DNA of 56,625 bases from Thermotogota bacterium. Its GTDB lineage: Bacteria > Bipolaricaulota > Bipolaricaulia > UBA7950 > UBA9294. Below the pieces are notes generated by a model. The model searched no databases, was not told the origin of the DNA, and was given only the letters and a program-made list of their open reading frames with translations. Shown piece after piece: positions 1 through 26,414 of the stretch. Both the position numbers and the translations under genes were made by a program. Location of the stretch: positions 1 through 56,625 of the forward strand of contig JBDKUT010000153.1 of NCBI GenBank assembly GCA_039679545.1, in the 5' to 3' direction. How positions within the stretch are numbered: the first letter of the stretch is position 1; the number at the start of each line of letters is the position of its first letter.

Positions 1-122
1 CGAGTCTCTCCACTGCTGTCGCTCGACAACCAGATCTCCGCGGTCGTCGCGAAAGCAGAGAGAGCGCAGAGCGCCATAACGAGCAACGTTAGGACACTCG
101 CTGCTCCTAGTCTCTTTTTCAA
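1..122 (-). CDS. N-terminus of a secreted protein (runs off the left edge)
   Basis: TTG at 122 with SD AAGGAGGT at 129-136; reads MKKRLGAASVLTLLVMALCALSAFA-TTAEIW, a Sec signal peptide. An in-frame ATG at 194 is an alternative start. Confidence 0.75.
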   Translation of the reverse strand, partial: MKKRLGAASVLTLLVMALCALSAFATTAEIWLSSDSSGET

Positions 123-450
123 CGTCGGACCTCCTTTTCGGGCCGAAGATTTCGCTTGTGTTTTCGTATTGCTTGTCTCGTTCATAGGAAGCATCAACCC
201 CCTGCAGCCTCCTTCCGCCTCACGTAGGGACACTTGGCTCCTAAATTCCGCCAACCACCTCCCTCATCGAAGCCACTCGGTTCATCATCCTGTTTGCGTC
301 ATGGCTTCTGCTCGGCGTCCGATCGACCGAACCGATCCGGCCGCCGATCCAAGGCGCGGGCGTGCCGCGTAGCTCCGCGACCGCCCTACACGTTCTCTCA
401 AAGACCAAAAGGGAGTGCAAACCCACCCCATCTTCCTTGCGAGTCGGAGG

Positions 451-480
451 ATCTTACCACACGGCTGCAACGCCTGTCAA
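451..480 (-). promoter_or_regulatory. sigma70 promoter for the left-edge secreted protein
   Basis: TTGACA (480-475), 18-nt spacer, extended -10 TG-g-TAAGAT (456-451). Confidence 0.65.
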
Positions 481-821
481 GCCGGATCAGAACAGCTCCA
501 ACCCGCGTTCGACCCACCCCGTGCAACGCGTCGGCCGCGAACCCTCCAAGGATCGGCCAAGAATCACCAGACGCCGTGGAGACACGGGGTCTTCGGTCAT
601 TCATCCGTGGATCACCCCCTTCGGTCGAAAGCGTCCACATACATGAAGACTACGCTAGCGCTCGTCGCCCGGCCCATCGCTGGAGCTTGGGACCTGCCTC
701 CGGCCATCCCGTCCGACCGAAGCGAGACACCTGTCCGTGACCTCGACTACACAAGATGACCGAGCTTCCTACGCTCCCTCCCCTCACCGCATTTTCACAC
801 ACCCACCGCCCCGCGCCGCGC

Positions 822-851
822 TTGACACGAGCCCGAGGAAACCGATATCCT
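822..851 (+). promoter_or_regulatory. sigma70-like promoter
   Basis: TTGACA 822-827, 18-nt spacer, TATCCT 846-851, upstream of RBS GGAGGT and ATG 882. Confidence 0.5.
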
Positions 852-881
852 GACTGCACCAGCGCGGAGGTGAATCGGACA

Positions 882-1553
882 ATGCAAAGAGGGGTGCGGA
901 ATCCGGCCGGGGTGCTCTGGTTGTTCGTGTCATTGTCGGTCCTTGCCGCCGCTCTTCCCGCCGGCGCCGTTCCCGCCCTCGTGCGGACGAACGCGGGCGA
1001 GGTCCTTCAGGGAGGTCTGTCGGGGCTCGCTCCCGTCCTTCGGCTGGCCGATCCTTGTCCGCTCATCGGCCCTGCGGCGCAGTACGACATTCCGTTGTCG
1101 TCGATCCTGCAGATCTTCGTGGACTTCCCGCGGATTGTAATCGAGACCGAGGATCGCGTGTATATCGGCCCGTACTCGACGTTCTCCGGAATTGATCAGG
1201 AACTTCGCCTGGACGAACGCGGCGTGGGAACCAGGATCTTCACGACGACCTTGAGCGAAATCGCCCTGAACGGCCAGCCCTTCCGCCCGCTGCCGCGCGA
1301 GTGGACCGGGCGCGGTTTCCTCGTTCTCGAGAAGGCGCCGCAGGCGGCCAAGGTCGCCACGGCGGCGGCCGCGCCGGCGCAGACGATGGCCTCGAGCGAA
1401 ACAACGACGGAAGACGATCTCATCTGGGGCCAGCTCACCCCCGCAGAGCCGCCCGCCGAGGAAGCAGCCGGCCTGCCGTGGTGGGTCGGTGTCGTCGCCG
1501 TCGGACTCATCGTCGCTCTGCTTCTATTCTCGTCGTCCAGCAGCTCCAAGTAG
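882..1553 (+). CDS. Hypothetical exported protein with C-terminal membrane anchor
   Basis: GGAGGT RBS; N-terminal signal-like stretch; Ala/Thr linker; C-terminal LPWWVGVVAVGLIVALLLF helix. Confidence 0.75.
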   Translation: MQRGVRNPAGVLWLFVSLSVLAAALPAGAVPALVRTNAGEVLQGGLSGLAPVLRLADPCPLIGPAAQYDIPLSSILQIFVDFPRIVIETEDRVYIGPYSTFSGIDQELRLDERGVGTRIFTTTLSEIALNGQPFRPLPREWTGRGFLVLEKAPQAAKVATAAAAPAQTMASSETTTEDDLIWGQLTPAEPPAEEAAGLPWWVGVVAVGLIVALLLFSSSSSSK

Positions 1554-1672
1554 GTCACGTAGTCGCACTCTCTTTTCTCCAGGCTGCCCCTGCGCGGAGA
1601 GGTCTCGCTGTCAATCCCCGCCTGGGTCCGCTTGCACGCCGCAAACCCAGCCCCTAAGATTGGTGCCGAGTG

Positions 1673-1759
1673 GGAGGGATGACCGAACGGCAAGGAACCG
1701 CTCTCGAAAAGCGGCACGGCGGAAACGCCCTCGGGGTTCGAATCCCCGTCCCTCCGCCA
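1673..1759 (+). tRNA. tRNA-Ser(CGA)
   Basis: Acceptor GGAGGGA/TCCCTCC-G-CCA; anticodon arm CCGCT-CT-CGA-AA-AGCGG; long variable arm; T arm CGGGG-TTCGAAT-CCCCG. Confidence 0.95.
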
Positions 1760-1833
1760 GCGCCCGTAGCTCAGTGGATTAGAGCGTCGGACTGCGGCTC
1801 CGAAGGTCACAGGTTCGAATCCTGTCGGGCGTA
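1760..1833 (+). tRNA. tRNA-Arg(GCG), no encoded CCA
   Basis: Acceptor GCGCCCG/CGGGCGT-A; D arm GCTC..GAGC; anticodon arm TCGGA-CT-GCG-GC-TCCGA; T arm ACAGG-TTCGAAT-CCTGT. Confidence 0.95.
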
Positions 1834-2101
1834 AAGCAGGGGTGGGACAAAGCGCCCACCCCTGCTTTACTTCTGACCGGTGAGAAACTGTCGGAGTTCG
1901 CTTGCGCGAACTCTCGAGCCATCCGTAGGATGGCCCAGGTTCCGAATCCTGTCGGGCGTAAAGACGACGCGGGCTCTTCCGGGCCCGCGTTGGCTTTCCT
2001 CCTGGCCGGCGAGAGCTTGTCCGAGTTTCACACCGTGCCGAAGCGAAACTCACGAACCGCCCCCACAGGGGCGGCCCAGGTTACGAGTCCTGTCGGGCGC
2101 A
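1810..2101 (+). repeat. tRNA-3'-end-containing structured tandem repeat (2 units plus a partial third)
   Basis: Units start at 1810, 1936 and 2077 with CAGGTT(N)CGARTCCTGTCGGGCGYA; linkers conserved; three hairpins in each full unit. Confidence 0.85.
1831..1874 (+). terminator. Terminator-like hairpin overlapping the tRNA-Arg 3' end
   Basis: Perfect 16-bp inverted repeat GTAAAGCAGGGGTGGG (1831-1846) / CCCACCCCTGCTTTAC (1855-1870), followed by TTCT. Confidence 0.65.
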
Positions 2102-2183
2102 TGGAGTGATGTTCACCCAGCCGTAGTGCTTCGCTCGGGACCGGGGGCAGGTCACTCTGCCGATGACGGGCACTCCCTCCGTC

Positions 2184-3773
2184 CTACTGCTTGCGGTACT
2201 GCCACAGGTCATATGTCGTCGGGCTGGTGGCAACCAGGAGGTCGCCGATGGCGTAGATAGCGTCGGCAGCTCCGCCTATCTTGAGCCAGCGTAGCGGATA
2301 GCCCGTGTACTGGAACACGGCACTCCCGTCGATTGCCAACCCGTAGAGGTGGTCATCATCCCCGACGGCGAACATCCGCCCCGGACCTCCAATCAGCACC
2401 CAAGAGAACGGCGTGCCATTGTACTCATGCAGATTCCCAACGTCGGGGTCTCTAGCGTACAGGCTCGTCCCCGCCGCGTAGATCGCTGCTGCGGGTCCGC
2501 CAATCTGAGTCCACTGATCCGGCGCACCGTCGTACTTGTAGACGCCGCTGCCGTCTGCTGCCAGGCGGTACACCCGTCCGTCGCTACCAAAGGCGAACTG
2601 CTTTGCCGCAACGCTGATTCGAGTCCACGACGTGCCGTTGTAGGAGTAGAGGGCGCCAGTTTGAGGATTCGTAGCGTAGAGACCTCGGCCCGTTCGATCG
2701 ACGGCGCCATAGATCTCGGCTGCTGCTCCTCCCACCTTGGTCCACCCTCCCGCTGACTCTATGTACCGAAGGACCGTTGCCCCGTCCGGGGTGAGGCCGA
2801 ACAGAGATCCCATCCCGCCCACGGCGAACCGCTTCCCAGGCCCGCCGACGCGGTGCCAGGAAGTCATCCCTGTTCCAGCGAAGGCGTAGATGTCTCCCGT
2901 CGAGCGTTCCGTCGCATAGAGTTGTTCGTAGGACTCAATCGTGCTGTATCCCACGATCACGTCCCCGACGGGTCCCCAGATCTGCGCCCAGTAGCCCTTG
3001 AGGAACGTGGAGATCCACGGCCCCCTCGAGTAGGTGGGCCGGTATACGCTGGTCCCGTTGGCGTCGTCACCCCAACTCGTGACGCCGATGATCCGTCCCT
3101 GAGCGTTGATCATGGGTCCGCCGGAGTCGCCCGGGCAGGTGTACTGCGTCGGATTCCTGACCGTTATGCTCTCGGGGCCGCACTCTGTGATCGTCACGGT
3201 CGCCATCCGCTTCTCGGAGTTGCTGGCCGAGCAGTCACTACCCGTCCGGCCGAACCCAATCAGCGTCACTTGCTCCCCCGGTGTGTTGGGGACGACAAGC
3301 TCAACCGGGATGGGAGTGACGTTCAGGACTCGCTCGTTCGCCGGCACATCGAGCTTGATGATCGTGTAGTCGTCCGCCAGCCAGCGGACCTTCCCGAAGT
3401 CGGGGTGAACATAGACCGTCCCATCAATCGAAACATCCTGTCGGGTAAGTGACTCGTTGACCGACGTGGTTGGATCATCGACCGGGAAGACATCATGCAA
3501 CGTGAACGTCCGCCGCGCACCGCAGGTGCTGTGATCGGCGTCCGGGCCCTGCTGACCGCAGACACAATGGGACGCCGTGAGGACGGTCTCCTGGTCGATC
3601 AGTGTCGCGGTGCACCCGGGAATCGTGCCGACCGCCTCATACTGGCCCACGGGAACGATCGCCCCCACCGAGAGAGGGAACTGCGTAGAACCCACTTGTC
3701 CGGCTCCAGCCCATGCCGCAGCAGCCAGGACCATCACACCCAGTCTGAGTGCCAAGCCAACGGTTCGTTTCAT
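2184..3773 (-). CDS. Secreted S1 (chymotrypsin-fold) serine protease fused to tectonin-like beta-propeller repeats
   Basis: Signal peptide MKRTVGLALRL..AWA; triad motifs TASHC, DYTII, GDSGGP; repeated W-x-x-(I/V)GG-(P/A) units in the C-terminal half. Confidence 0.85.
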   Translation of the reverse strand: MKRTVGLALRLGVMVLAAAAWAGAGQVGSTQFPLSVGAIVPVGQYEAVGTIPGCTATLIDQETVLTASHCVCGQQGPDADHSTCGARRTFTLHDVFPVDDPTTSVNESLTRQDVSIDGTVYVHPDFGKVRWLADDYTIIKLDVPANERVLNVTPIPVELVVPNTPGEQVTLIGFGRTGSDCSASNSEKRMATVTITECGPESITVRNPTQYTCPGDSGGPMINAQGRIIGVTSWGDDANGTSVYRPTYSRGPWISTFLKGYWAQIWGPVGDVIVGYSTIESYEQLYATERSTGDIYAFAGTGMTSWHRVGGPGKRFAVGGMGSLFGLTPDGATVLRYIESAGGWTKVGGAAAEIYGAVDRTGRGLYATNPQTGALYSYNGTSWTRISVAAKQFAFGSDGRVYRLAADGSGVYKYDGAPDQWTQIGGPAAAIYAAGTSLYARDPDVGNLHEYNGTPFSWVLIGGPGRMFAVGDDDHLYGLAIDGSAVFQYTGYPLRWLKIGGAADAIYAIGDLLVATSPTTYDLWQYRKQ

Positions 3774-4039
3774 CGTACCCTCCATGTCTCCTACAACCCT
3801 CATCAGGCCTGCTTGGCCCAAACACTCCATCTCCAAAACCACTCTATCGCGCCTCGGACGGCGCGTGCCAACACGTGAGGACGAACTGGATCTTCGTCGT
3901 ACTTTCAGAGTCACCCGGCCGTGGTAGCACCGTTCCCTGCCCCCGCAGACCACCTGCCGCCGATCCGTCAACGCGGACGCCGCCAGCGGGCTTTCACAGG
4001 CCGGGCGAACCTGGATATCGTGGGGTCGGAGGCGAGAGC

Positions 4040-4630
4040 ATGAAGAAGATGTCGCGGCGAGTCTGCGTCGGCCTGCTGTTGGTGGGAGCGCTCATGGTCC
4101 CATCGTGGGTCGCGGTGGCTCCGCCATCCGACGCGGTTGTCACGGGAATGCTGGCGATGTGGCTGCACGGCACGGCCGTGCAAATCGAAAGCCCGGAGCG
4201 GCTCGCACAGGTCCAGCGTTTTGCCTATCACACAAGAATCGAGGGGAACCCGAACACGGGCAATTGGCTCCACTTCCCGATCACTACGCCGGTCGTCGGA
4301 ACGTACGTGGAATCCCAGAATGTCCCATTCACGGGATTCATGACGAACTACCGACGTTACCACCTCGACAAGGTGTTCGTCAGCTTCCGCAGCGGCTCCA
4401 TCGACGCTCGAGTGACCAACGTTCACATCTACGATGGCCCCAAACTGATCGCGGCCTTTAACAACCTGAATCTCTATGGGGAACAACACATGCGGGAATT
4501 CGTTCTCCCCAACTTCCCCGAAGTGGAGCAGGGGATCTGCATCTCGTTGGGCGTAGAGTTCGGATCGTCCGGACAGCGGTGGATGGAACTTCAGTCCGTC
4601 GGAGCGGACTTCTACTTCCTGGACCAGTAG
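4040..4630 (+). CDS. Exported DUF6623-like protein
   Basis: Signal peptide; motifs MWLHG..QIE.P, NWLHFPITTP, VHIYDG recalled from DUF6623. Confidence 0.6.
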   Translation: MKKMSRRVCVGLLLVGALMVPSWVAVAPPSDAVVTGMLAMWLHGTAVQIESPERLAQVQRFAYHTRIEGNPNTGNWLHFPITTPVVGTYVESQNVPFTGFMTNYRRYHLDKVFVSFRSGSIDARVTNVHIYDGPKLIAAFNNLNLYGEQHMREFVLPNFPEVEQGICISLGVEFGSSGQRWMELQSVGADFYFLDQ

Positions 4631-4924
4631 GGCACCCAATCGCATTGCTGAGCGGGGCGACCGGCGCAGGCGGAGATTGTCCGCCCTCCGGAGCCCGCTC
4701 AACTGGAAGGTTCGGTGTGCCCTACTCGACATCCTACCCACCACCGATGACTTGCCCGCGGGCAGAGATTGATCTTGAGCTTGGACTCGAACGCCGCTAA
4801 GCCGATCAAGAGGACACCGAGCCTCCGTCTCTGGGCGTGCGAAGGCTGGTCATAGCAGGGCAGGGATCCAAGACGGAGGTTCTGGATGTGGGGACGTCAG
4901 GTGTACCAGTTCGAGAGTTATCCC

Positions 4925-4984
4925 GTTGGGTCACCCGGGCGAACGATCCTCAAACCCGGTTCGAAAGTAGTCCACCAAGGGGTA
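4925..4984 (+). repeat. Dispersed ~60-bp direct repeat, copy A
   Basis: GTTGGGT...GTTCGAAAGTAGTCCAC..GGGGTA; 46/60 identical to copy B without gaps (hand count). Confidence 0.8.
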
Positions 4985-5130
4985 GTAGATGCCTTTGGCT
5001 TGCGCGGTCATGCATCCACTCGAGTTCTTCATTCAACACCCTCCTGAAGCTGGACACCCCAGTCCCACAGCCCGACGCCCCTGGAGGCGGCTTCTCGCGC
5101 CGCCCGTCGCCCTCTCCTGAGCCTTCTTTC

Positions 5131-6192
5131 CTACTCCTCTGAGAACCGGCACTCCCTGTCGAGGCGGCTTACCACGGCAGCAACAAGCTGCGCTGCGTGC
5201 TCGAGATCCTCGCCGTGGACGATCTCTGATGCAGAGTGCATTGCCCGGGTGGGGATCGAGATAAGCGCAGAGGCAACGCCTCCTCGGGATATCTGAATGG
5301 CGTTGGCATCGGTACCGTAGGGACCGGGAGCGATCTGGTACGGGATGCCCTCAGCCTCTGCAGTTTGCACGAGCAGGTTCAGCAGCCGCGGGTTGACCGT
5401 GTACCCGGCGGCAAGCATTGGGCCCTTGCCCAGAAAAGCCCGACCTACTCGCTTCCTGGCTTCACGGTCGCCAGGGGTGTCTGTCGCCCATCCCACATCC
5501 ACCGCGATGCCAACGTCAGGAGCAACCGAGTAGGCACTGGTCGTGGCTCCACGCTTGCCGACCTCTTCTTGGACGGTGGCCACGGCAAACACGGCGGCAG
5601 ACAGTTCCATCTCCGCTAGGCGGCGCATCGCCTCCACAACGACGAAGGTCCCCACCCGATTGTCGAGGCCGCTCCCCACAACCAGCCTGTCGTGGAGCAG
5701 CTCAAGCCCGCTCGAGAACACCGCGAGTCCGCCGATCTGGACGCGGCGCTTCGCCTCAGCAGCATCCGTCGCGCCGATGTCAATCCACAAGTCCGAGAAC
5801 GACACAGCGGTCTCCTGTTCCGTTGGCGAGAGAAGATGGGCTGCCTTGCGACACACGACGCCCCGAACCGGTCCATCGCTACCCAGGATGTCGACGCGTT
5901 GACCCGGCAGCCCCTGGGTATCCCATCGTCCCGCTCCGACAAAGTACAGGAACCCAGACTCGTCGATATCCGTAATCTGAAGTGCGAGCTCGTCTATGTG
6001 AGCTGCCAGCATCACTCGGGGCCGTCCCTCCTCGTTGACGCACCCAAAAGAGTTACCGTGAGAGTCTGTCCAGACTTTCTCCGCATAGGGGCGAATCTGC
6101 TCCCGCCACGCTCTTGCCGCGTCCATTTCGCGACCCGTCGGCGCAGGATGAAGCATCAACTCAGTCAACCGAACCCATGTCTGGCGATCCAT
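5131..6192 (-). CDS. M42 family metallo-aminopeptidase
   Basis: AAHIDE, LDNR, VQEEVG, VDVG, MHS metal-binding motifs. Confidence 0.9.
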   Translation of the reverse strand: MDRQTWVRLTELMLHPAPTGREMDAARAWREQIRPYAEKVWTDSHGNSFGCVNEEGRPRVMLAAHIDELALQITDIDESGFLYFVGAGRWDTQGLPGQRVDILGSDGPVRGVVCRKAAHLLSPTEQETAVSFSDLWIDIGATDAAEAKRRVQIGGLAVFSSGLELLHDRLVVGSGLDNRVGTFVVVEAMRRLAEMELSAAVFAVATVQEEVGKRGATTSAYSVAPDVGIAVDVGWATDTPGDREARKRVGRAFLGKGPMLAAGYTVNPRLLNLLVQTAEAEGIPYQIAPGPYGTDANAIQISRGGVASALISIPTRAMHSASEIVHGEDLEHAAQLVAAVVSRLDRECRFSEE

Positions 6193-15709: not shown

Positions 15710-15769
15710 GTTGGGTTACATGAGAAGGCGATCTTCGAACCCCGTTCGAAAGTAGTCCACTTGGGGGTA
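15710..15769 (+). repeat. Dispersed ~60-bp direct repeat, copy B
   Basis: Shares the exact 17-mer GTTCGAAAGTAGTCCAC with copy A; dyad TTCGAAC-CCC-GTTCGAA. Confidence 0.8.
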
Positions 15770-22280: not shown

Positions 22281-23234
22281 CTAGAAGGGGGTGTCTGCCG
22301 CCACATAGCAGTGAAGGCCGGCGTCGGAGAAGAGCTTCTGATGAACCGCCATCTCGGCGCTCGTCGGCGGCTTGGTCTGGGCGCGGGCGTACTCGAGGCC
22401 GAGTTGCGTGTACTTCGATTCGGCCATCCGGTGGAAGGGCAGGAGGTTCACTTCGGCAAGCCCTAGCGTGACCAAGAGGCCAACCATCGCAATGAGGTTC
22501 TCCGGGGAGTCGTTGAACCCTGGGACAACCGGGATCCGCACCACCAACCGCGCCTCGCGCCGAGAGTGCGCAAGGGCCTCGAGGTTGGCGAGGATCTGCT
22601 CGTTGCCGACACCCGTGCCACCGCGATGAGCGGCGGAGTCCATGTGCTTCAGGTCGACGAACAGCCAGTCGGCACGGCGCGCGACATCCCGCACGAGCTT
22701 GGACTCAGCGTGCGCCGACGTCTCAACGGCCGTGTGGATGTACGCCTCCCGGCAGGCGTCAAGGGCAGCCAACAGGAACTCGGGTTGGGACAGCGGCTCG
22801 CCGCCGCTGAACGTGACGCCGCCTTCCGGCCCCCAGTAGTTGCGGTCCCGTTCGAGCGTCCGCATCAGGTCGCTCACGGTCGTCCATCGCCCTGACACCT
22901 CGAGTGCGCCGGAGGGGCAAGCGGAGACACAGGGTCGCTCTTCGCACCTCGCGCACACGGCTCGATCGAAGCGAGGGGGGATCGGGTCCGCGGGGTCGAT
23001 TCGGATTGCGCTATGCGGACAGGCACGGACGCACGGATGCCCGTCGGACCGACACCTCGATGCTCGAACCATCAGCTGCGTCCTCGGGAGAAGTCCTTCC
23101 GGATTGGCGCACCACGTGCACCGCAGCGGACACCCGCTCAGGAAGACTGTCGTTCGGCACCCCGGCCCGTCGTGCACCGAGTGCGCCTGGATGTCGAAGA
23201 CCAGCCCCCGCGCCGTGCTCAGGCGCTCTTCCAT
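22281..23234 (-). CDS. hpdA: Glycyl-radical enzyme activating enzyme (HpdA-like radical SAM)
   Basis: HDGPGCRTTVFLSGCPLRCTWCANPE (CxxxCxxC), ferredoxin-like Cys insert, GGVTFSGGEP. Confidence 0.9.
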   Translation of the reverse strand: MEERLSTARGLVFDIQAHSVHDGPGCRTTVFLSGCPLRCTWCANPEGLLPRTQLMVRASRCRSDGHPCVRACPHSAIRIDPADPIPPRFDRAVCARCEERPCVSACPSGALEVSGRWTTVSDLMRTLERDRNYWGPEGGVTFSGGEPLSQPEFLLAALDACREAYIHTAVETSAHAESKLVRDVARRADWLFVDLKHMDSAAHRGGTGVGNEQILANLEALAHSRREARLVVRIPVVPGFNDSPENLIAMVGLLVTLGLAEVNLLPFHRMAESKYTQLGLEYARAQTKPPTSAEMAVHQKLFSDAGLHCYVAADTPF

Positions 23235-23488
23235 TCGAACCCTTCGCACGTCACGGCGGCCAGGTCGGGGTACGTCATCGGATGATCCGGCGCGGCCGAA
23301 CAGAAGCCCAGGTACTCGTCGTCGCTCGGCAAGTACCGCTTGCATGCCGCGCACTGTGGAAGACGGGCGAACGAGGGGCAGGCGTCCTTGTCCCCGTACA
23401 CGATTCCCTTGGTCACGTGGCAGACGCCCTTGACGACGTCAACCGGCGCGTAGTTCCGGCAGTGCATGTGCCGCAACGAGGTCGTCAC
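23219..23488 (-). CDS. hpdC: 4-hydroxyphenylacetate decarboxylase-type small Fe-S subunit
   Basis: 89 aa; H..C.N....D..KG.C..C / CxxC..C..C ligand pattern; GTGA overlap with the large-subunit stop. Confidence 0.85.
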   Translation of the reverse strand: MTTSLRHMHCRNYAPVDVVKGVCHVTKGIVYGDKDACPSFARLPQCAACKRYLPSDDEYLGFCSAAPDHPMTYPDLAAVTCEGFEWKSA

Positions 23489-26202
23489 TCCCGCACCCCC
23501 TCGTATTCCGTACGGGCGATGATCTCGTCCTGAATCGGCTTCCCGATCTCCACCCAGTACTGTGTGAACCCGGCCACGCGGACCAGAAGATCCCGGTACT
23601 GCTCGGGGTGCTCCTGGGCATCCTTGAGGATCCGCGAGTCCACGACGTTGTACTGGATGTGGAAGCCTCCCTTGCGCATGTAGGATCTCGTCAGCTCGAG
23701 CAATTTCTTCGTTCCGGCACGGCCTTGGATCGCGCTCGGGTGGATCTTCAGGTTCAGCTGGGAGTTCTGAGACTGCGCATGGTCCCAGCATGTCGCCGAA
23801 GCGAAGAGGGCGTACGGCCCGTGGCGGTCGGTACCGGGGTAAGCGGACATCGACGCGTCGGCGAACGTCGTGCCGGCCAGGCGACCGTCCGGCGTGGCCA
23901 TGGTCACGGCCCCCATCGGCGCGTGCGTGGAGACCGAGATCTGACACGCGTAGTACGGCTGGGCGTTGAGCGACTCGTAGTCCCTGCACTTGGCGCAGAA
24001 CCAGTCCTCCCACTGCTTGAGAATGCCGTCGACGTACGGCGTGTCATTCCCGTACTTCGGCGCCGTGAGGCACTCAACGTGCGTTCGATCGTGCTCGGTT
24101 GTCTCCCCACGCTTCTCCTGGGACGAGAGCGAGAACGACCCCACCTCGTCGGCGGTCCTGAACCCGAAGTTGTCCGCGAGCGCCTTCCGAAGCTCCGCAA
24201 GGGTAACGACTCCTCGATCGTAAACCAGGGACTTGAGTGCCGCGAGGCTGTTGATCAGGTTGATGGTTCCGCACGTCTCGACGTTGTGCGTCGCGTTGTA
24301 CCGGTACCCAAGTTCGTTGATCAGATGCCCGGTCTCGAGGCAGTCCGGCTTGAGAAGCGAGTTGAAGACGGCCGCGTTGTTCTTACGCCAGACGTCATGT
24401 TGGATGTTGTTGGCGAGGGACAAGACCTCGACGGCCTTGGCAAAGTACGCCTTGACTTGGTCGAACAGCTCTTCGTACGAGCCGAGCGCACACCCGTGCG
24501 GAGGGAACACGCGGAGCTTCGTGCGTTGATCGATGCCGTCGAAAAGGACGAGCTCGAGGATCTTCGGAAGGGAAAGGAAGTGGACGCCGACGCTCGTCGG
24601 CTGGCCCGACCCTCCCGGGATCCAGTACGACCGGCCATTCAGGGTGAGGGGCAGCCAGGAACACGGAGAGGTCTCGAGACAGCCACCGATCGCGATCGCT
24701 CGCGCCTCTTCCAGATCCATACCCTCGGGGCCGTACTGCCCCATCAGGAACTCGATCGCGGTCCGGTTGTTCACGACGGCTGGATAGCCGGTCCCTGTCT
24801 TGATGCACTCCGCGGCTTTGAGAAGGAACGACTCCGGCAGCTTGTCGTCGTAGAGGAGGGTCAGCGTCGGCTGCGTCGACGCGCAGGTCATTGCCGCTTG
24901 GAGGATCAGTTCCTCGAGGCGGTTGTTCGCCGGCCCCCCGCTTCGATCGAGGCCGCCGATCGAGAGGTTGTTGAACGTGTTCCCGGACAAGACGCCTCCA
25001 ACAACGCCCATCGACGCGAAGCAGTCGAGGCACGTGTACTTGACGCGCAGGCATTCGAGCAGTTCGAGGGCCTTCTCTTCGTCGAGCCGACCGGCCGCGA
25101 TGTCCTGCTCGTACCACGGCCAGAGAACCTGTCCGAGACGGCCCGGGGACAGGCCGGAGATGACGTCCTCGTTAAGCACGGCGACATGCACAATCCACGT
25201 GAGCTGCAGCGCTTCGTAGAACGTTCGCGGCGGACGATGGGCAATCCACTCGAGACACTCGGCAATCTGGGTGTACTCGGCGCGCTGTACGGGCTCGTGC
25301 TCCACGGCCCCCAGGCGGCGCGCCTCCCGCGCATAGTTCTCGATCCACGCCTGGATTCCCCGAAGGACGTGGCTCGCCGCCTCGTAGTTGTAGAGGCGGT
25401 TCATGCCCGTGAGTCCGTCCCCGTCGGCGCGCCCGGCGACCTCGGACTTCTTCTGCTCCGCCCTCGAGATCAGTTCATCAAGTCCGAACTGCAACGGGTA
25501 GTAGTAGTTCACGACCTCGCGGCCCTGCGGCAACGTGTAGCCCGAATCGAACATGCACGTCACCGACTTCATCAGGGCTTCCTTGATCTCGTACCCGGGC
25601 GCCATCTGCTCGTACTTGTGCCCCACGTCGTCGACCGACCGGCCCTCCCAAGCGCGGGCGACGCGTAGCATCGCGGGGACTTCCTCTTTCCGGATCCCGA
25701 ACTTCCCCGCAATCGACACGACGGAGCCGAAGCTCTTCGTGACGTTTCCTCCGCCCGTTCCGAACGTGGAAACCTCGTCCGCGCTCGCGCTGCCCCGCGC
25801 TAACGCGTCCTGATAAAGCTGATTCTCGGCCGCCATGTAGTACCCCTCGGATAGCCATGGCATCGGGAAGGAGCCGCGGTAGTGATGGGTCTTTCCCACG
25901 ACCAGGAGCTCCCCCGGGAAGATCATCGGCGTCAAGTGGCGGAACGCCGATTCGAGAGCCAGGGCGCGGCGGACAATGGGAATGTCGTTGTCAAGTCCCA
26001 CGTACGAGCGGGTGTACCAGTACGGAAACTCGTTCGACGCAGAGGAGAGGGCACTGTAGTACAGGTCGCGCAGGCGTTCCGCTCGGGGAGACGGCCTGCC
26101 CACGACCTCGCGAGGCGTTGGCTCCGCCGGCGGCGTGCCCATGGCCTGGTACTCCAGGCGAGCGTCTGCCTGAGCAAGGACCTCCGTCAACTTACGCGGC
26201 AT
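23485..26202 (-). CDS. hpdB: 4-hydroxyphenylacetate decarboxylase-type glycyl-radical large subunit
   Basis: 905 aa; Cys loop GGCLE, Gly loop RVAGFTQYW, SGLS.GR, VHF, CQISVS. Confidence 0.88.
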   Translation of the reverse strand: MPRKLTEVLAQADARLEYQAMGTPPAEPTPREVVGRPSPRAERLRDLYYSALSSASNEFPYWYTRSYVGLDNDIPIVRRALALESAFRHLTPMIFPGELLVVGKTHHYRGSFPMPWLSEGYYMAAENQLYQDALARGSASADEVSTFGTGGGNVTKSFGSVVSIAGKFGIRKEEVPAMLRVARAWEGRSVDDVGHKYEQMAPGYEIKEALMKSVTCMFDSGYTLPQGREVVNYYYPLQFGLDELISRAEQKKSEVAGRADGDGLTGMNRLYNYEAASHVLRGIQAWIENYAREARRLGAVEHEPVQRAEYTQIAECLEWIAHRPPRTFYEALQLTWIVHVAVLNEDVISGLSPGRLGQVLWPWYEQDIAAGRLDEEKALELLECLRVKYTCLDCFASMGVVGGVLSGNTFNNLSIGGLDRSGGPANNRLEELILQAAMTCASTQPTLTLLYDDKLPESFLLKAAECIKTGTGYPAVVNNRTAIEFLMGQYGPEGMDLEEARAIAIGGCLETSPCSWLPLTLNGRSYWIPGGSGQPTSVGVHFLSLPKILELVLFDGIDQRTKLRVFPPHGCALGSYEELFDQVKAYFAKAVEVLSLANNIQHDVWRKNNAAVFNSLLKPDCLETGHLINELGYRYNATHNVETCGTINLINSLAALKSLVYDRGVVTLAELRKALADNFGFRTADEVGSFSLSSQEKRGETTEHDRTHVECLTAPKYGNDTPYVDGILKQWEDWFCAKCRDYESLNAQPYYACQISVSTHAPMGAVTMATPDGRLAGTTFADASMSAYPGTDRHGPYALFASATCWDHAQSQNSQLNLKIHPSAIQGRAGTKKLLELTRSYMRKGGFHIQYNVVDSRILKDAQEHPEQYRDLLVRVAGFTQYWVEIGKPIQDEIIARTEYEGVRE

Positions 26203-26414
26203 GGCTTCTCCTCCACTTCGTCGCAGCCGGTCTGGGCAGGACCTCCCCTGCCGTCGCCGCCGCGGTAGGTAGCCAGGACATCCTTCCACCCCCGGCGCAG
26301 CCAGAGTCTACCGAGCCAGCAAGCAGGCGACCAACGGACATCAGGCCTCGCTTGGTGGACCGGCGCGGCGGATTGGGCGAAGATTCCGACGTCGGTCGAG
26401 GGGGAATCGGTGAC

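Follow-up and report, generated by a model that had tools for sequence, protein, structure and literature searches.

Organization of the tRNA-Arg locus

The window, i.e., the whole 56,625-nt stretch of DNA analyzed here, carries on its forward strand a tRNA-Ser(CGA) gene (1673-1759) and, directly 3' of it, an intact tRNA-Arg(GCG) gene (1760-1833), with zero spacer between the two (1673-1833). The tRNA-Arg gene has no encoded CCA, its first pair is G-U, and CGC is read by the GCG anticodon in this bacterial family. It is the last 24 nt of this gene (1810-1833) that have been copied into two tandem units on the same strand. Measured from acceptor end to acceptor end, unit 1 spans 127 nt (1834-1960) and unit 2 spans 141 nt (1961-2101). 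Unit 1 consists of hairpin 1 (1834-1867), an inverted copy of the tRNA end (about 1868-1892), hairpin 2 (1894-1913), hairpin 3 with a C-GTA-G triloop (1918-1934), and, at 1936-1960, a direct copy of the tRNA end whose T-loop is one base longer. The corresponding parts of unit 2 lie at 1961-1996, about 1997-2021, 2023-2051, 2056-2074 and 2077-2101, and its direct copy also contains one extra T-loop base. Positions 1816-1833 are repeated exactly in unit 1, after the extra base, and with two mismatched positions in unit 2. Fold z-scores amount to -8.4 for unit 1 and -4.5 for unit 2, with 0/200 shuffles reaching either of them.

Most of the preliminary description, made from the letters of the window, is reproduced by this layout: the T-arm copies begin at 1810, 1936 and 2077, hairpins 2 and 3 are found at the claimed positions (hairpin 3 reading GCCATCC/GGATGGC in unit 1 vs CCGCCCC/GGGGCGG in unit 2), and both downstream copies contain one added T-loop base. 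The 30-nt linker following hairpin 1 also retains its position and its 22/30 identity between the two units; however, it does not represent a neutral spacer, as it corresponds to the tRNA 3' end copied in inverted orientation and rich in wobble pairs.

No further copy of unit 1 or unit 2 was detected in the source genome by blastn. Three units of the same build are associated with its tRNA-Arg(TCG) gene on contig C133 (15113-15642, locus L106), and the tRNA cluster of this contig contains single hairpin-2 or hairpin-2/3 modules between tRNA-Gly, tRNA-His and tRNA-Arg genes. Modules devoid of tRNA-end copies occur at two other places in the genome: hairpin-2-like modules are arranged in tandem between tRNA-Ser(TGA) and tRNA-Ser(GCT) (C91:170-450, L107), and hairpin-2/3 modules flank small genes on contig C45 (4680-4746, 7809-7950 and 8620-8890), which, from reading their translations, resemble RelE, Fic and HicAB types. 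In relatives, hairpin-2/3 modules often sit in the Ser-Arg junction.

The array heads an accessory region. The first block behind it (2184-4630) encodes a trypsin/tectonin protein on the minus strand and a DUF6623 protein on the plus strand. A plus-strand relic at 4879-4905 is assigned, by likeness, to one end of an island whose large serine recombinase targets tRNA-Arg; its spacing equals that of the island end in locus L073, and no recombinase gene is present here. It is followed by two plus-strand, tRNA-end-like half-sites with an inverted half between them (4909-4984), hereafter X half-sites; in the X motif, the distance between the T-loop-like and the acceptor-like word exceeds that in the tRNA by 5 bp. 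A third X half-site on the same strand (15744-15769) closes the second accessory block, which comprises an M42 peptidase, a peptide ABC transporter, an aminotransferase and other genes. No recombinase was found in the window by tblastn with six queries or by Pfam on 18 ORFs of positions 756-26307. The far end of the lower-GC region (22284-26307) encodes a PFL-like glycyl-radical enzyme and its radical SAM activator.

Covariation, the inverted copy and the folded strand

An alignment of 27 units was hand-picked from 47 automatic cut-outs, after nested duplicates, false hits and some irregular units had been dropped. In this set, 89.3% of the cells are paired, vs 39-54% in slid controls. Two-sided changes affect 26 of 44 pairs, a number reached by none of 500 shuffles, although the corresponding p-values are overstated because the units are kin. 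Covariation is observed for 11 of the 13 pairs of hairpin 1 and five of the seven pairs of hairpin 3; at the base of hairpin 2, the sequence itself is conserved. These values support the earlier proposal that selection acts on structure.

The covariance model built for the family, R1, matches 33 of 74 genomes of a Bipolaricaulota family, training genomes included, and seven of its 18 genera; unit 1 scores 138.9 bits and is itself a training sequence. The named relatives that share a linked motif are Candidatus Bipolaricaulota, which is therefore the probable phylum of the source genome. At E ≤ 1e-6, R1 yields no match in 88 genomes belonging to the phylum's other families, a result that concerns sequence relatives, so that the layout itself could still occur there. 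No Rfam family except tRNA was detected in window positions 1-6000, and no exact match to two patterns was found in viral contigs. Within the family, the presence of units is patchy and their number variable. The host genes are tRNA-Arg with GCG, CCG, CCT, TCT and TCG anticodons and, once, tRNA-Leu(CAG). Mirror-type arrays located 5' of tRNA-Arg, as well as complete tRNA-Arg pseudo-copies interrupted by the hairpin-2/3 module in the D-loop and the anticodon loop, are observed at L082 627-1046, L086 790-1645 and L274 2170-2838. In locus L051 (2640-3039; contig C25 of genome G068), the module forms part of a 151-bp tandem repeat without a tRNA-Arg end; the preceding gene lies off the locus.

By folding, the inverted copy has two pairing options. 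It may pair with the upstream copy, forming a single long hairpin with hairpin 1 at its tip, or with the downstream copy, forming a stem closed by hairpins 2 and 3. When unit 1 is folded as a circle, 77-79% of its bases are paired. The inverted copy follows its host: across 26 tRNA-adjacent loci, its best partner is the tRNA end of its own host (-22.25 kcal/mol vs -17.75 ± 0.75 kcal/mol for permuted hosts), and none of 5000 permutations is as good, the related loci not being independent. The 26 loci are those of 79 distinct Arg/Leu ends that passed the filter, and shuffled inverted copies pair with the tRNA end at -12.6 kcal/mol. In a comparison based on crude cut-outs, the fit of the inverted copy to the downstream vs the upstream direct copy is divided, with seven against 11 of 19 cases. 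The preliminary description had suggested an alternative tRNA-like fold through hairpin 1, and the 6/7 complements of the acceptor strand are indeed present at 1852-1858 and 1981-1987; this fold is not conserved, its 70.9% pairing standing against 73.8% in shuffles. It is the linker, i.e., the inverted copy, that pairs with the acceptor copy in a conserved manner.

The departures of the inverted copy, read on the tRNA-sense strand, comprise 86 G-T vs 12 A-C cases, and the bias holds after normalization (0.33 vs 0.06 and 0.32 vs 0.13). The modules used here come from the model-aligned set; a regex finder caught only eight. The bias points to the tRNA-sense strand as the one that folds and is also compatible with an RNA fold, with deamination of the transcribed region as a confounding factor. 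Folding with RNA energies is better on the tRNA-sense strand in 21 of 27 units.

The loops provide a further indication of the nature of the folded strand. Triloop hairpins were defined by seven perfect pairs and a 3-nt loop, and 80 unit sequences were inspected. On the tRNA-sense strand, C-GNA-G is found in 16 of 26 distinct triloop hairpins, against a genome background of 14/435; all four bases occur at N, and the opposite-strand form is represented by one case. The excess recurs in 47 units outside the training set (11/28, loops called by folding). GNRA tetraloops are found in 2/29 cases in units vs 13/415 in the genome, and cUUCGg in none. GNA minihairpins are described as extraordinarily stable in DNA and less so in RNA, and as occurring at single-stranded DNA origins and in the N4 promoter, in the account given in PMC13037366. 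The unit loops are DNA-type loops, not RNA tetraloops.

Gain of units and the search for an enzyme

The bodies of units 1 and 2 are 57.4% identical, and closer bodies exist elsewhere for both of them (53/78 for unit 1 and 51/78 for unit 2). The best identities elsewhere are up to 74% for unit 1 and up to 80% for unit 2, the latter being 75-80% like units at other tRNA-Arg loci. Of 125 types of sequence located behind a junction, 20 are shared by at least two classes of site. The unit-2 type has two occurrences behind tRNA-Arg(GCG), three behind another unit and four behind an X site; a further unit type is found behind three tRNA isoacceptors. Run X2, which may be a source of this DNA, contains a contig from a related organism (seven differences in each part) where a unit-2-like copy adjoins the tRNA and unit 1 is missing. 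The preliminary description had left room for a decayed local duplication, marked by the lack of homologues and of covariation; instead, the family is carried by 33/74 genomes and its helices covary. A decayed tandem duplication of a tRNA end plus terminator, with neither function nor mobility, is thus hardly credible, because the neighbors are 57% alike and each is closer (70-80%) to units at other tRNA-Arg genes. The compensatory changes and the spread of the family already contradict it, even though near-identical neighboring units do exist in relatives G068 and G083, where they are plain tandem duplications.

In relatives and in 53 metagenome loci, units also lie directly 3' of X motifs, in one orientation and kilobases apart, and the gene blocks between such units encode surface, transport and enzyme functions. 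On contig C14 of relative G067, a unit is present at two of five otherwise alike junctions and absent at three. A 1.2-kb block that is 93% identical in two genomes is bounded by junctions and has different units on both flanks. Internal homology ends lie near sites in both partners in 24/90 cases (about 17% expected by chance), and the evidence for block shuffling is accordingly limited to a few cases. As the 5-bp shift of the X motif is like that of attP relative to attB, the units at X sites may have been added at a tRNA and displaced by islands, perhaps rather than inserted at the X sites; displaced or not, they were gained between island arrivals. In one lineage (L069, L070, L071 and metagenome loci L249-L300), the roughly 115 nt ahead of the X motif are constant and start like an IS3-family end; an IS3-type remnant in L073 ends with the mirror word.

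A linked tyrosine integrase, as anticipated in the preliminary description, was not found in the source genome or at the array loci. Of the four tyrosine recombinases in the source genome, which is 93.6% complete, none lies at a tRNA-Arg array; its one serine recombinase is located at tRNA-Asn, and its one Y1 transposase lies elsewhere and has its own unrelated ends. No match to RVT_1, to a four-helix-bundle/IVP (Avd-like) protein or to a GxxExxY protein was obtained. At 109 array loci, tblastn with six queries returned just one serine recombinase and one Y1 transposase upstream of tRNA-Ser, and Pfam on 104 ORFs of the array loci (most of the 142 called, plus four added) returned one IS3-type transposase besides. 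A 205-aa tyrosine recombinase without the usual N-terminal domain (C21:45163-45780 in the source genome, L218) is a core gene, with counterparts of at least 64% identity in 69 of the 74 family genomes. Y1 genes occur in 63/74 genomes, none of them flanked by units in the loci examined, and a serine recombinase domain in 17/74. The presence of the 205-aa protein, of Y1 or of a serine recombinase does not separate carriers from non-carriers among the 74 genomes, and no unit circle or excision junction was seen in the contigs. A guide role of the AAAG word for an HUH enzyme was dropped because its bases covary with their partners.

One subfamily of serine recombinases (49-54% identity to L192), present in seven of 74 genomes, forms islands that end at the 3' ends of tRNA-Arg(CCT/CCG/GCG) and, in one case, at an X site; the junction involved is the one from which units start. 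With respect to the tRNA, the ends of the island of the known recombinase are shifted by 6 bp and the X half-site by 5 bp. Large serine recombinase genes running antisense into tRNA 3' ends were also noted at Arg, Asn, Ile, Gln, Ala and a Glu-like end (relatives L192, L193, L194, L195 and L198, as well as L201, L203-L205, L208 and L213-L215). The 2014 Islander work describes serine integrases as not known to target tRNA genes (PMC4383910).

Proposed mechanism and alternative explanations

We see about an even chance that the units are gene-less, non-autonomous mobile elements that fold as single-stranded DNA and are inserted at the tRNA-Arg 3' end by an enzyme acting in trans. This reading draws on the observed anatomy, covariation, host-tRNA tracking, DNA-type loops, unit types shared across loci and filled or empty junctions. 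In a circular form, the direct and inverted copies would pair into a duplex mimicking the end of the tRNA gene, capped on one side by hairpin 1 and on the other by hairpins 2 and 3. Exchange of a single strand, with subsequent replication, would then insert one unit, as in CTX phage attP or integron attC. Such an insertion would leave an intact tRNA and two damaged copies, and the reaction should therefore be repeatable, with the newest unit adjoining the tRNA. The invariant base of hairpin 2 may serve as a protein-binding mark, and later gene-carrying islands arriving at the same site may push older units downstream. A tyrosine recombinase or an HUH-type protein is the candidate enzyme class. 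Crossover at the acceptor end is favored and is indicated by the filled and empty junctions together with a TCG-type unit in a CCG array; crossover in the T-loop is possible and is allowed by the Leu-type direct copy behind tRNA-Leu(CAG). If exchange of a single strand at a tRNA end is confirmed, it would constitute a new site-specific route of gene gain with a compact, retargetable insertion site.

The main competitor at the level of the molecule is that the units are RtT-like structured RNA modules of a tRNA precursor, with hairpin 1 terminating or pausing transcription, a tRNA-like stem formed by the inverted and direct copies and processed to a small RNA, and recombination through the shared tRNA end spreading the copies. 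The better fold of the tRNA-sense strand (21/27) and the abundant G-U wobbles agree with it, the Rfam model of the E. coli counterpart is an RNA that extends from the inverted copy to the direct one, and rRNA-linked repeats of E. coli yield processed RNAs that bind CsrA and Hfq, according to one account (PMC8144298). On the transcript side, RNA run X21 of the same study covers no unit, and X21 may not contain the organism; unit sequence of relatives is present in contigs of two of four other RNA libraries, contigs that give no strand, ends or level and have no silent control. The loops, however, are DNA-type triloops with no enrichment of RNA tetraloops, presence is patchy with variable unit number, and many units lie kilobases away from any tRNA. 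The preliminary description had offered a tRNA-mimic noncoding RNA array and a repeatedly integrating element side by side; the integrating element is now better supported and the RNA mimic less so, and we regard the latter as rather unlikely. A comparable, small probability is assigned to the units being remnants of large serine recombinase activity (minimal relic islands or scars at junctions), with the tRNA-Arg 3' end as attB, tandem accretion of the CIME type on double-stranded DNA and hairpins acting mainly as terminators. The subfamily described above ends exactly where units begin, relics lie in the window at 4879-4984 and 15744-15769, and decayed elements are known to accrete at tRNA ends (PMC5704250). 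Furthermore, the 5-bp offset of the X half-site resembles the ZD motif, which one source places 5 bp further out in attP than in attB (PMC3783163). Against the layout of large serine recombinase att sites (two inverted half-sites around a central dinucleotide, with the distal motif 5 bp further out in attP), the outcome is mixed: the X half-site agrees with it relative to the tRNA end, whereas the units do not, as their direct copy is near attB spacing, and a hairpin instead of an inverted half-site follows the junction. The known recombinase's 6-bp shift also departs from 5 bp, most unit-bearing genomes lack the subfamily, and neither covarying hairpins nor DNA triloops nor strand bias would be needed for double-strand exchange; four-strand exchange with a folded circle would presumably break the chromosome.

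Template switching by a DNA polymerase or reverse transcriptase at the tRNA end, adding the same hairpin-2/3 cap at several break points, is much less probable still. It would account for the presence of the hairpin-2/3 module 5' of tRNA-Arg and, within tRNA pseudo-copies, in the D-loop and the anticodon loop, as well as for the unit with a Leu-type direct copy behind tRNA-Leu(CAG). Nevertheless, no RVT_1 match exists in the 93.6% complete source genome, whole unit types recur at separate loci, and the degeneracy of the inverted copy is patterned and common even to E. coli, unlike that of a fresh copy. Returning to mobile elements folded as single-stranded DNA, a wider version can be put forward tentatively and with low confidence: an undescribed tRNA-anchored cassette system, in which the 130-160-nt units would be empty cassettes, the kilobase blocks bounded by X sites loaded ones, and the E. 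coli tRNA-linked repeats (TLRs) of the same kind. An enzyme acting in trans would recombine folded single-stranded DNA circles into the tRNA-Arg acceptor end, and the arrays would then be a time-ordered record of gene gain.

Several known systems share part of this organization. tRNA islands and CIMEs likewise combine an intact tRNA with a displaced, sometimes damaged 3' fragment and may form tandem arrays, as outlined in PMC4383910 and PMC5704250. The present array, too, shows a tRNA and displaced fragments in the same orientation; however, the units measure 127 and 141 nt (127-165 nt across the family), far from the on-board integrase and 2 kb or more of an Islander element, have no integrase and are almost wholly self-paired. 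The fragment damage reported for Islander is a small deletion near the discriminator (PMC4383910, in the part concerned), whereas here it is an insertion in the T-loop. CTX attP(+)/IMEX, integron attC and the present units each possess two target-like copies in inverted orientation, able to form a duplex by folding, and CTX phage at dif leaves one functional and two nonfunctional target copies, a topology matching the one found here (PMC3089051, for CTX). In contrast to CTX and integrons, the target here is a tRNA end and not dif or attI, and no integrase or phage genes are present; the integrase gene that heads an integron array has no counterpart at the array loci scanned. Strand-biased wobble and bulges are shared with integron attC. 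By inspection, the R-box order of the attC consensus is not reproduced, the GTT word preceding the AAC word on both strands. REP/BIME elements with their RAYT (HUH Y1) protein are similar as short, gene-less DNA hairpins with a conserved foot and GNA-type loops moved in trans. They differ in that no conserved GTAG foot exists here (the foot varies), the tie to tRNA-Arg ends is strict, and the Y1 gene of the source genome has unrelated ends instead of being linked to the units.

The closest parallel is provided by the E. coli TLRs, which one account describes as known since 1978 without a known function and as tandem units behind a tRNA gene, each ending in a copy of the tRNA 3' end (PMC8144298); the mode of action of RtT is given as unknown in another (10.1101/2024.07.17.603846). 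As in TLRs, the last 18-19 bp of the upstream tRNA recur at the 3' end of the units, exactly in unit 1 and with two mismatches in unit 2, and the two units here, like the three behind tRNA-Arg(TCG) on C133, fall within the one to five tandem units of a tRNA or rRNA operon. The comparison with tyrT drawn in the preliminary description proves apt and closer than claimed, since the E. coli units also hold an inverted copy: in tyrT/tyrV (NC_000913.3), four of four 178-bp units contain an inverted tRNA-Tyr end in which the complement of the T-loop is changed to TGAG, as in unit 1, and C-GNA-G triloop hairpins occur in these units too. The words "inverted" and "mobile" do not occur in the main text of PMC8144298. 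There is no sequence-level likeness in either direction: R1 does not match E. coli tyrT, and Rfam RtT (RF00391, threshold 45 bits) gives no match at E ≤ 1 in window positions 1-6000 and none at gathering score in five other unit-bearing loci, the E. coli control scoring 133-138 bits four times. Unlike E. coli TLRs, the neighbors here are dissimilar, units also occur at gene-block junctions, and the direct copy is about 25 nt long, covering the whole T-arm with its extra loop base, vs 18-19 bp. No prior description of this family or mechanism was found in what were mostly open-access main texts, of which only PMC8144298 and one preprint refer to TLRs or RtT, and older TLR papers may describe the inverted copy. 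Taken together, the family is a real variant of the unexplained tRNA-linked repeats, widespread within one bacterial family, with the same anatomy as those of E. coli and an unrelated sequence. It adds three clues, i.e., an inverted copy that tracks the host, DNA-stable loops on one strand, and units gained or lost at precise junctions, which represent first signs that tRNA-linked repeats act as folded DNA and move. The question thereby shifts from the role of an RNA to what moves the DNA, and E. coli itself, whose tyrT/tyrV units share the inverted copy and the triloops, can be used to test it.
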